64,000 bases of DNA, filler included, from Globobulimina sp. (GCA_003354225.1; 33 parts of 33 records of this genome joined end to end with filler, not necessarily neighbours in it); one strand, 5' to 3'; shown: positions 27,090-32,939, counted from the whole stretch's first letter. The notes: generated from the letters alone by a model not told the origin. Numbers and translations: made by a program.

Positions 27090-27348
27090 ATTCTTTAACT
27101 TAAATTTAACNNNNNNNNNNNNNNNNNNNNNNNNNNNNNNNNNNNNNNNNNNNNTTAATTAATTAANNNNNNNNNNNNNNNNNNNNNNNNNNNNNNNNNN
27201 NNNNNNNNNNTGCTCCCACCCTTCCGCACGAAGACCTTCCCTCTCCAACGCTCAAACCAAAAGCAATTGCGATTAATGAGCCGAGAATATGCCCTCCCTT
27301 CTTCAGTGTGTACGTATCTGAAACTTCATCAGTCAGCCACGCAACAGC

Positions 27349-27383
27349 TATTAACAAAGAATGAAGGGCAAATTTTAAGGGGT
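27349..27383 (+). repeat. attC-like left arm A (TATTAAC core), complementary to 28413-28450
   Basis: AGAAT-G-AAGGG-CAAA-TTTTAAGGGGT pairs with ACCCCTTAAAA-GCTT-CCCTT-ATTCT. Confidence 0.65.
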
Positions 27384-27439
27384 AGGCTTATTTCAAATAA
27401 CAAAATAAAAAAATCTTCCTTTCGTTCTTGCAGAACGAT

Positions 27440-28360
27440 TTATGTTAAATATTTTCCACATAAAAATCCTTTGCGTGGATTAAAGTTTTCAAACGTACAG
27501 CTTTTAAAAATCCACATCTTATTAGCCCATCGGGCTAAGTCTAATTCGTATTGCTGTGGCTTTCTATTATTTTCAAAATCCCTATAAGGTTGGACAAATG
27601 GAGTTATCCCAAGCTCTTTAAGTCTATTTAATCTATACAAATCTTGCTCAATAGAACTATTAAAACCAACCAATACATAACATGATAATTTATAAGGCTT
27701 AATATACTTTATGACTTCTTTTAGTTTATCTGTTAAATCCAATTCTGGCAAATCCCAAGCAATATGAATATTTTTTTTAAGCTTTAATTTATTAAGCCAA
27801 TATGCTTGTTCTTCATTCATAATACGAATATCTACGCCATGCAAGTTTACTGGTTGGTTAATTTTCATCAAATAGTCAATAGATACTTTCCATTCAGGAT
27901 TTGCAAAGAAATTATTATCAAGCACATCAATCCATTTACCATTTGGATTTAATTCAACAGGATCAACAGCATGAATATTCCCTTCTTTTTCTTTTACTAA
28001 ACAAAACTTGCATTTACGAATACAACCACGAGAAAGAAATTGAATTGAGTAATTATATTGTGGATAAATAGAATAATCCATCAATTTTGAATTATCTATA
28101 CAACTTGGAAGCTTTAAAGCTATATCATATCCAGTACCTCCTTTTATCATTTCTCCATATTCAGCAAATCCATTTGAAAAATCAGGAGAAAAAGTAAATA
28201 TTTTACTCAAATATGTACGATCATAAACTCCAAGGTCAGCCCATCCAACTGAATCACCTTTTGATTTATGATAAGCTGCAATTTTCATTAAAGCAAAGTT
28301 TGGAAACTTTCTCCCATCTACATCAATAAGTCCAATTTTAGTGGTATTGCCAACGCTCAT
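27440..28360 (-). CDS. Radical SAM protein, phage/prophage-type (Bacteroidetes-like)
   Basis: CxxxCxxC in RGCIRKCKFC; also KIGLIDVDG..FPNFALMKI, GGTGYD, LDNNFFA and YVLVGF. Confidence 0.9.
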   Translation of the reverse strand: MSVGNTTKIGLIDVDGRKFPNFALMKIAAYHKSKGDSVGWADLGVYDRTYLSKIFTFSPDFSNGFAEYGEMIKGGTGYDIALKLPSCIDNSKLMDYSIYPQYNYSIQFLSRGCIRKCKFCLVKEKEGNIHAVDPVELNPNGKWIDVLDNNFFANPEWKVSIDYLMKINQPVNLHGVDIRIMNEEQAYWLNKLKLKKNIHIAWDLPELDLTDKLKEVIKYIKPYKLSCYVLVGFNSSIEQDLYRLNRLKELGITPFVQPYRDFENNRKPQQYELDLARWANKMWIFKSCTFENFNPRKGFLCGKYLT

Positions 28361-28412
28361 TTTTTTATTTGTAGTTTAATAATTTAGTTCAATATTTCAT
28401 AGTTCAGAGTGA

Positions 28413-28528
28413 ACCCCTTAAAAGCTTCCCTTATTCTCGGCTCATTAGCAACAATGCCTTTAAATAATTGCCAACACTCGAAAAGCCTTACGCAAGGCAC
28501 AGTTGCTAACATGCAATAAAAAACATGC
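28413..28528 (+). repeat. attC-like right arm A, gene-less 67-bp spacer with complementary ends, and left arm B
   Basis: ATTAGCAACAATGCCTT (28444-28460) and AAGGCACAGTTGCTAAC (28494-28510) match at 14/17 as inverted repeats. Confidence 0.65.
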
Positions 28529-28587
28529 TTAGGTCTGTACCTCGTATTAGCCTTAGTTGGTTATTGGGGCAATTAAAAAATAAAAGC

Positions 28588-28962
28588 CTACGCACCCTCG
28601 TATTTAGCTTTCAGTCTTTTATATTCCGCCAAATCCTTTTCATCGTTAATTTCATCAATACCTTTAACCAGTTCAAGCGATTCTTCATCATACCAACTGC
28701 TACTGTTATCTTCAAATAAGTGTTTAAGTGAATATTGCTTTAGGTTTCGTTCGCTTGAACCTCCATACTTTTGTTGGTAACTATATTGTATTTGGTAAAG
28801 TCGTTCTTTATCTTCATCAAAACTCATCTGCGAAAACCAGTGTGTAGGCTTTGCTATTTTCACTATTTCACCTATATGAAATTTTTGCCCTTCTGGTGTT
28901 TCTTCTTTTGGCGGTATTTGGCTCATCATTTTAGCCATCATTGCATAAGTTTCTCTATCCAT
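28588..28962 (-). CDS. Small phage-like hypothetical protein (possible SH3-like barrel)
   Basis: Complete 124-aa ORF with QKFHIGEIVKI...SWYDEESLELV and a C-terminal EYKRLKAKYE. Confidence 0.7.
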   Translation of the reverse strand: MDRETYAMMAKMMSQIPPKEETPEGQKFHIGEIVKIAKPTHWFSQMSFDEDKERLYQIQYSYQQKYGGSSERNLKQYSLKHLFEDNSSSWYDEESLELVKGIDEINDEKDLAEYKRLKAKYEGA

Positions 28963-29013
28963 CGCTTTTTTGTTTTTTAATTAGTACGCGTAGTTAGTTT
29001 TGTGCGTTATTTC

Positions 29014-29047
29014 GCACGTTTCTTGTTGCTGTCCGTTATGGGTAATT
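29014..29047 (+). repeat. attC-like right arm B with GTTATGGGTAATT core
   Basis: GCACGTTTCTTGTTGC is complementary to GCAATAAAAAACATGC (28513-28528) at 13/16 positions. Confidence 0.6.
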
Positions 29048-29473
29048 CCTCCCNNNNNNNNNNNNNNNNNNNNNNNNNNNNNNNNNNNNNNNNNNNNTTA
29101 ATTAATTAANNNNNNNNNNNNNNNNNNNNNNNNNNNNNNNNNNNNNNNNNNNNTTCACTGATAACTGTCTCGATTTTTCGCGAAAACTTGACAAATTTTA
29201 GTCAAATTTAACTTTTGTAAATGACATTATTTTAAATTTGTATTTACGTCATTTCAATGTTTGATATCCATATTACGTTGCTTTCAAATGTACTGTACAT
29301 TGTACCAATCACCCTTTTTTTTTCACAGAAAAAAGAAACCCCTTTGATTATGTAAATGTTTGGTGACGAATCAAATGGTATGGTGTTATCGTCTGAAATT
29401 TCAACCTTTCAATTGATTGCTTGGTTATATTGATAGTGAGGCAAAATCATAAAGGAAACGTTGTGAAGAAACG

Positions 29474-31856: not shown

Positions 31857-32939
31857 TTACGCTTTAAGTGATGCAGTCAATGAATTCTGATTTTGTGAAA
31901 GTGCAATAGAAACACTTCTCTTATTCAATTCTGTGGTTTCTTGCTCAGATTTCCGATGAAAATAATTATCATCACAATTACCAGGTTGATATTGAACATC
32001 AATTGTTGACATTGAATTTGTTCGTTTTTTCTTGTACTTTGCAATTGATTGTATTACTATTTGTTTCTTTAAACAACATCGAGTAACAATTAAAGCTGAT
32101 GCTATAAACAATGCACTCCCAACAAACGGAAGCGAAGCAAATCCAATTTTCTTACTATGTCGGTATGCCGATCCAAAAGCAAATGGTGCTATAATCGTAG
32201 TGATGGCCCGATAGGACTGCACGATTCCAAATCCCTGCCCTTGCTCGCCTTCTCCCAAAAACCTGGTTAAAATCGAGTTCAATGCAGCCGCACTTATCCC
32301 AACACAAAAAAATAGCAACCCACCAAACACAATGACTGGTATTTCAGGCACATAGTAAAACGTTGCAAATATGAGTTGTGATGCAATTGAGCCACAAATT
32401 CCAATTTCAACTATATTTAAATCGCTAAATCGTTTCTTTAAAAAAGGTAAGATAACCGCCGCACAAATTATTCCTGACAAACCAACGGAAACTAAAAATA
32501 TTGCATTTATTTTGGACGACTCTCTGGCTTCGTGAATGTCCATTGATTCTGATAAATAAACCAAAATAATACCAATTACACCGGCCTGCGGCAGAGATAT
32601 TAAAAAGTAAACCATTGACACAAACAAAACAATCCTATTATCTGTGACATGCAGTAAAGGCCGAATTGGATTGAAATTCTATATAATATGTTTCCGTTAA
32701 AAAAAAATAATGTAAGAAAACATTTGTGAAGTATATAAAACATAACTTTTATGCTAAACGGCGCTCTGTTACGTGGCAATAATGATTCTTTTACAAAAAC
32801 GACGGTGTATATTATGGCAAATATATAAACAATGCTGATGGCAATCCAATTGATTGAAGTTTCGAATAAAAAAGAAATTATGGTCGCAACGAAGGCACCA
32901 ACAAATAGCATAATTCCTGAAACGCCATAACTTAAACCA
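31857..32939 (-). CDS. MFS transporter (TetA/MFSD14-like), 5' truncated, with intron
   Basis: Many TM helices; FVKESL; EQGQGFGIVQS....TIIAP. Confidence 0.8.

Follow-up and report, generated by a model that had tools for sequence, protein, structure and literature searches.

A short contig (27211-29053, 1.8 kb) within a window of 64 kb, the window being the whole stretch of DNA that was analysed, carries two minus-strand genes, each of which lies inside an integron-like hairpin site, between its left and right halves, rather than between two such sites. The halves of one site, A, enclose a gene for a radical SAM protein of 306 amino acids (aa), and those of the other, B, an open reading frame (ORF) for a conserved protein of 124 aa. 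The arms have the closing motifs and the spacing of a family of hairpin sites found in Flavobacteriaceae genomes and phages; in related phages the sites are short and the genes stand between them, and in public metagenomes the units behave as modules. The explanation we favour, with a confidence somewhat better than even, is that we have here a fragment of a cassette-type array of accessory genes, built on integron-like hairpin sites and most likely belonging to a marine Flavobacteriaceae-type phage, in which genes occupy the loops; the contig itself is probably derived from a phage. The window consists of about 33 unrelated contigs of 1833-1845 nucleotides (nt) each, with GC contents of 0.28-0.48, joined by spacers of the form N...TTAATTAATTAA...N, and the stretches adjacent to 27211-29053, being other contigs behind N spacers, are therefore uninformative about it.

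Two genes enclosed by the halves of hairpin sites

Half-sites are named along the strand of the genes (minus), so that the left half of each site has the higher coordinates. The left half of site B (29014-29038) is made up of TAACG (29038-29034), a 4-nt spacer (29033-29030) and a 16-nt arm (29029-29014), and its right half (28507-28528) of a 16-nt arm (28528-28513), 1 nt and TGTTA (28511-28507). Site A follows the same plan with longer arms, its left half (28413-28447) consisting of TAATG (28447-28443), a 4-nt spacer (28442-28439) and a 26-nt arm (28438-28413), its right half (27352-27383) of a 26-nt arm (27383-27358), 1 nt and TGTTA (27356-27352). In both sites, then, motif and arm are 4 nt apart on the 5' side, compared with 1 nt on the 3' side. 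Because the 4-nt spacer is one-sided, the orientation is fixed, and each gene is enclosed by the two halves, left and right, of one and the same site. Unit B measures 532 nt with a loop of 485 nt, unit A 1096 nt with a loop of 1029 nt. The original prediction, made from the sequence of this stretch, had placed pairs of complementary arms around both genes, and all of them were found at the positions it gave; its description of the cores (AAC and GTT in B; GTT on one side of A and AAT/ATT on the other, which it had noted as ATT in place of GTT) and of an asymmetric spacer was likewise accurate.

The arms of site B (28513-28528 with 29014-29029) form 13 Watson-Crick pairs, 2 G-T pairs and 1 mismatch over 16 positions without a bulge, and a scan for pairs gave 13/14. 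In site A, the inner pair (27364-27383 with 28413-28432) matches at 17 of 20 positions, with one bulged C in the duplex, while an outer pair (27274-27289 with 28432-28447) matches perfectly over 16 nt and extends to 30 nt at 80%. When duplex energies were compared with 500 shuffles of one arm, no shuffle equalled the A duplex (-18.0 kcal/mol) or the outer A duplex (-24.2 kcal/mol), and single-strand folds of the intergenic DNA were weakly better than those of shuffles (z of -2.1 and -1.8). The stems of sites A and B show no mutual similarity, so that the pairs are not explained by cross-pairing of look-alike neighbours.

Between the two units lies a gene-less hairpin (28445-28509), in which the tail past the TGTTA of B pairs with the head preceding the TAATG of A. 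Its arms (28445-28460 with 28494-28509) match at 14 of 16 positions, with a duplex energy of -16.0 kcal/mol that none of the 500 shuffles equalled, and the 33 nt between them hold no gene. This is the position at which relatives keep their genes, and the claim that the cassette positions are empty here was borne out. To the left of unit A, on the plus strand, there is an inverted and internally collapsed copy of an A-type site (27260-27306), which shares the head, TAATG, spacer and opening bases of the arm with site A; right-arm-like bases come next and pair locally with 27358-27370. The copy accounts both for the perfect 16-mer of the outer pair and for the local hairpin. A reading of the 75-nt stretch left of A as a MITE, a miniature transposable element with inverted repeats, or as a target duplication was ruled out, as the stretch is without terminal repeats. 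As a separate observation, circularising the stretch between the A-side crossover cores (27273-27289 with 28432-28444) would give a perfect palindrome of 30 nt with the junction at its centre. Elsewhere in the window, the contig at 5834-7677 has a 13-mer in common with the right end of site A, which was judged a chance match; an identical GC-rich hairpin with a T-rich tail is present twice on that contig, whose end is this same 13-mer.

The radical SAM gene (27440-28360, minus strand) lies inside the 1029-nt loop of site A. Its product matches phrog_9298 over the full length (E 1e-125), contains the CxxxCxxC motif and has matches in 17 phage records, the best at 70% in Bacteroides phage BKO1-TP3, and in 40 IMG/VR loci. 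A terminator-like hairpin of 7 bp (27422-27438) follows 2 nt past its stop codon, ahead of the right arm. At 31 related radical SAM loci the flanks contain no inverted repeat above shuffles and bear no similarity to the intergenic DNA of the contig; the arm repeats are specific to contig 27211-29053 in comparison with these loci. The 124-aa ORF (28588-28962, minus strand) occupies the 485-nt loop of site B. The protein is conserved, with 90 metagenomic relatives at E <= 0.001 (among 91 candidates) at 56-97% identity and two relatives on IMG/VR contigs (L158 and L159); the relative with 97% identity (P0001) is encoded on a contig of 46,932 nt. Nothing matched the protein in the phage collection or among 401 Flavobacteriaceae genomes, and neither Pfam nor NCBIfam has a family for it. 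By their matches, both ORFs are real genes, and the claim that the two genes sit in the loops of the sites agrees with what was found. Around the 124-aa ORF, a motif of 11-15 nt (CTCGTATT(T)AG on the plus strand) occurs in three direct copies (28537-28552, 28594-28607 and 28984-28999), two of them flanking the ORF within the loop and the third in its last codons. The consensus of one metagenome (X2) increases the likeness among the copies, which may be a trace of ORF replacement.

A hairpin-site family of Flavobacteriaceae and their phages

The family to which the arms were compared was defined on the phage record of contig L159 (G001), a complete IMG/VR phage of 40,681 nt, rated 100% complete and with no match to a tyrosine recombinase. 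On L159 an imperfect palindrome stands behind nearly every small gene, and a covariance model (R1) was built from 12 of these sites, which share one architecture. An invariant TAACG pairs with an invariant TGTTA, a G-T pair included; 4 unpaired nt follow TAACG on the 5' side only, with none opposite, and the stem continues with 16 further pairs interrupted by two 1x1 mismatches. Compensatory changes were seen in 15 of the 21 consensus pairs, and across the family the stem sequence varies while the structure is kept. A normal site runs TAACG, 4 unpaired nt, stem, a loop of about 30-150 nt, stem, TGTTA, and is placed between genes.

In G001 itself the model finds 19 sites at E < 0.01, 9 of them outside the training set, in two divergent arrays. 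On L158 it finds one site, directly upstream of the homologue of the 124-aa gene, and it gives 40 hits in 48 kb of sequence from three relatives of G001, Flavobacterium phage isolates from the Baltic. Polaribacter phage P12002L yields one hit, and several further sites of the TAACG/TGTTA build can be read in its intergenic DNA, located between the methyltransferase and small early genes. Matches were obtained in 113 of 151 Flavobacteriaceae genomes, and as a negative control 468 kb of phage loci bearing radical SAM genes (41 loci) gave none. The family is therefore real and specific. In an Aliivibrio genome with a true IntI nothing was found; as just 150 of 5036 first-look candidates were scored there, this result provides no evidence on Vibrio sites. 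Searches of Rfam returned sub-threshold noise, and a crude scan for folds between AAC and GTT had no power to discriminate. The two strands of the sites fold equally well (-9.75 versus -9.79 kcal/mol), and the G-T pairs show no strand preference.

Site B agrees with the family exactly (TAACG, 4 nt, 16-nt stem, 1 nt, TGTTA), and site A agrees with one transition (TAATG, 4 nt, 26-nt arms, 1 nt, TGTTA). That the closing motifs should stand at the family spacing in both pairs as chance repeats is very unlikely by our own estimate, which is not a tool score. The arms therefore read as halves of attC-like sites, as the original prediction had put it, and the occurrence of the family in Flavobacteriaceae genomes and phages fits the Bacteroidetes and phage context that it had suggested.

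In the hosts, the family forms long arrays. In a complete Flavobacteriaceae genome of 3.09 Mb (G096), one site stands behind each gene of a co-oriented array, with 24 R1 hits in 37 kb, more up to about 70 kb and further hits on the chromosome (G096:C1) reaching 601 kb. The start of the array (region L235 2369-3662) is 15 nt past a co-directional ORF of 394 aa for a Xer-like recombinase, and the tyrosine-recombinase match in this frame falls on the integron-integrase model in two pieces, skipping positions 179-237, the IntI-specific part. In this array, the bases past each GTT core complement the head of the site that follows, which is the mark of circularly permuted cassettes; the same complementarity of tail and head across a gene is also seen in the phage G001. 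Classical IntI was found above the family cut-off in none of the 151 Flavobacteriaceae genomes, the lone candidate reaching 237 bits against a cut-off of 265, and five genomes chosen for multiple, clustered sites gave no IntI match. A large cassette system that lacks a classical integron integrase is common to marine Flavobacteriaceae and their phages. Separately, the C-terminal 85 aa of a tyrosine recombinase, interrupted by one stop, are encoded on a Polaribacter chromosome (G004:C1 2245394-2245765) at 37 nt from an R1 site, and a second such fragment lies 4 kb from the first.

In the related phages, the family sites are short and the genes stand between them. The homologues of the 124-aa gene on L158 and L159 sit between sites, and the loops in G001, P12002L and the three isolates are 56-206 nt long. 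Some of these loops hold the start codon of the next gene or annotated mini-ORFs (gp57 and gp41 of P12002L). It is common in the related phage for the next gene to have its start codon within the loop and for the right arm to be translated (L200 2338-2477 and 2424-2696; L159 10355-10495 and 10745-10890), one translated right arm being the signal peptide of a lipoprotein-like ORF of 90 aa. In the isolated phages, mini-ORFs coincide with the loops or arms of sites (L236 4956-5051, gp09; L201 39530-39664, gp57, and 32486-32638, gp41) and may be annotation artefacts. The sites of the phages run in the sense of the genes (L199 and L200 of G001; L236-L238), with stop codons located within TAACG, whereas those of the host arrays are antisense to the genes (L229, L230 and L235).

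Modular behaviour and rival explanations

Contigs and unitigs of four public metagenome runs (X1, X2, X4 and X14) were aligned with the contig at 85% likeness. They show the arms to be members of a repeat family and the units to be modular, with breakpoints at the cores. In the marine run X1, contigs span unit B from AAC to GTT (28508-29037) at 95-100%, with both outer sides unlike. In X4, one contig is identical over 28456-28646, and in another 28508-28593 comes after a different gene. The flanks of B in X2 reach a depth of 190-380 in up to 12 contigs, compared with a depth of 36 in the gene interior. X14, which contains 0.80 of the words of the contig and may be the source sample, has unitigs that end inside the A arms (27355-27384 and 28413-28442), and a contig of 599 nt in which both A arms and their inner flanks (about 88% alike) surround a different insert of 403 nt. 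Single unitigs run through 28413-28888, from the left arm of A through the middle hairpin and the right arm of B into the 124-aa gene, and others link the radical SAM gene to each A arm. Exact-word scans, with a 16-mer in genomes and viral contigs, a 19-mer and a gapped A-arm pattern in viral contigs and an 18-mer in metagenomes, gave only chance or coding matches.

Several observations weigh against reading the contig as an array with genes in the loops of its sites. The B duplex (-12.4 kcal/mol) is equalled by 6 of 500 shuffles and by 4 of 934 random pairs of contig segments, so that the B pair taken alone is just moderately above chance. Searched with the model R1, 27211-29053 gives no site at E <= 10, a silence that is expected because the loops are kilobase-sized, compared with at most about 150 nt in the family; the membership of A and B in the family is accordingly a reading of motifs and spacing rather than a model score. 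Among about 60 sites in four related phages, no loop contains a full-size gene, which makes the layout of the contig an extreme and rare form. The public evidence consists of unitigs at 85% likeness, from runs of which X14 is possibly the source sample, the joint in X2 that skips the ORF is weak, with 21 letters on one side, and the link between units A and B could be an assembly choice, as unitigs break inside the A arms.

Two further facts of this kind, that homogeneous host arrays cross-pair left and right halves of different sites at 12-14/14, with 17 long-range cross-site pairs in 20 kb of G096, and that left-half-only sites are common in P12002L, bear directly on the alternative that the contig is a decayed canonical array. 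Its four arms would then be what is left of as many short sites, each reduced to one half, and their pairing would reflect no more than the family resemblance of such remnants. The lack of a phage integrase to maintain sites would also suit such decay. It would require, on the other hand, four independent half-deletions that left one left and one right half for each of two unrelated stem types in the correct order, and unit B travels whole, from core to core, in another metagenome. Decay is, on balance, an unlikely account, albeit one with some standing. An artefact of assembly or amplification at the repeated arms, which we hold to be highly improbable, would agree with the short length of the contig, its coverage of about 5x, the fact that the arms are repeat nodes in which public unitigs break (in the A arms exactly), the sharing of both A-arm nodes by the alternative insert and the match of the left 174 nt of the contig at only about 97%. 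Evidence against a chimera comes from the single unitigs that cover 28413-28888 or connect the radical SAM gene with each A arm, from the independent coverage of unit B in X1 and from the alternative insert itself, which shows the same layout of arms around an insert.

The flanks might instead act at the level of RNA, pairing in read-through transcripts as processing or stabilising stems for each cistron, by analogy with RNase III-type stems. The sense orientation of the phage sites, the stop codons in TAACG and the invariant G-T pair that closes the stem on the sense strand would be in line with such a role, yet the host-array sites are antisense to the genes, both strands fold equally and the tail/head signature of cassettes indicates recombination of DNA. 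The terminator-like hairpin behind the radical SAM gene, ahead of the right arm, is a further difficulty, and IntI1 has recombined one site of P12002L, a member of this phage group (PMC9892861). Since the strands fold equally, structure by itself neither supports nor excludes an RNA role, and taking these points together we give it a low probability. It is similarly far from probable that the radical SAM unit is a segment flipped by a recombinase between inverted copies of its junctions (27260-27289 and 28432-28461). The inverted repeat across both junctions, with its perfect 16 nt, and the fact that family sites are targets of tyrosine recombinases in hosts would favour inversion; no strand-changing joint was seen in the four runs, although rare forms may go unseen in contigs, the repeat is also accounted for by reading the left copy as an inverted site that has collapsed, and unit B is without an outer pair.

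Relation to integrons and significance

Classical attC sites are short (about 55-150 nt), with a gene-less loop and with genes between the sites. The units of the contig depart from this in size (532 and 1096 nt) and in layout, as their loops hold ORFs and 33 nt lie between sites. Like the arrays of sedentary chromosomal integrons, the family has inverse AAC/GTT cores that close an imperfect hairpin, a variable stem sequence with a kept structure, and tail/head complementarity (in G096, and at 28445-28509 here). It differs from them in being without IntI and without two extrahelical bases on one side, in place of which there are two symmetric 1x1 mismatches and the one-sided bulge of 4 nt, and on this contig in having the genes inside the sites. 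Identification of the sites as classical integron attC found no support, given these symmetric mismatches and an integrase record of one weak candidate in 151 genomes and none in G001, and the interpretation put forward in the original prediction is, as a whole, partly supported.

Promoter-stem-loop (PeSL) repeats are direct repeats that flank genes in the variable regions of T4-type phages and have been proposed to drive gene shuffling; in common with the present sites they are repeated regulatory or structural modules at the borders of phage accessory genes, but they have neither AAC/GTT cores nor covarying hairpin arms. The nearest described counterparts are the attC clusters without an integrase (CALINs) that Qi et al. 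(2023) report in virulent phages, Polaribacter phage P12002L included (PMC9892861); the two published sites of P12002L may be among those found here. The hairpin-site type, the lack of an integrase in the phage and the accessory early genes as cargo are shared with P12002L, whereas its genes stand between the sites and its loops are at most about 200 nt long, in contrast to the whole genes in the loops here. REP and REPIN elements are described as short GC-rich palindromes, dispersed in both orientations and with a conserved tetranucleotide head (PMC3733652); this identity was ruled out, as the present sites form co-oriented arrays after single genes, beside a recombinase, with TAACG as head. 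In a literature search that covered mostly open-access papers, no description was found of genes in attC loops or of an integron-like system of Flavobacteriaceae.

If the contig is a fragment of a cassette-type array with genes in the loops, the halves of A and of B would each flank a whole expression unit, consisting of a 5' leader and an ORF and, in the case of the radical SAM gene, the terminator-like hairpin. ORF modules would have been inserted or replaced in the loop; in relatives this loop already contains the region upstream of the next gene and, in many cases, its start codon. The units would be exchanged by recombination at the AAC/GTT cores, and the possible agent is a tyrosine recombinase supplied in trans by the host or, alternatively, homologous recombination via the conserved arms and flanks. 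It is doubtful that arms with 0.5-1.1 kb between them can still fold and recombine, and we see a limited chance that they do; the loop sizes, together with the hairpin that follows the radical SAM gene ahead of the right arm, make efficient folding questionable and also count against an array of this kind. A working capture architecture, or an intermediate in the genesis of cassettes, is what the layout may point to. It is conceivable, if rather doubtful, that the hairpin sites themselves carry cargo, an ORF captured in the loop gaining arms and both cores so that site and gene would move as a unit.

The inside-out layout would then be a rare variant within this integron-like cassette system, and one that tools limiting site length to about 200 nt would overlook. 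How an ORF first joins a recombination site is an open question of integron biology, and the natural series from empty loops through loops with a start codon or a mini-ORF to a loop with a gene for 306 aa could make this question testable. If it proves true, loop capture would be a direct route to the birth of new gene cassettes and a phage-specific way of keeping self-expressed genes mobile.

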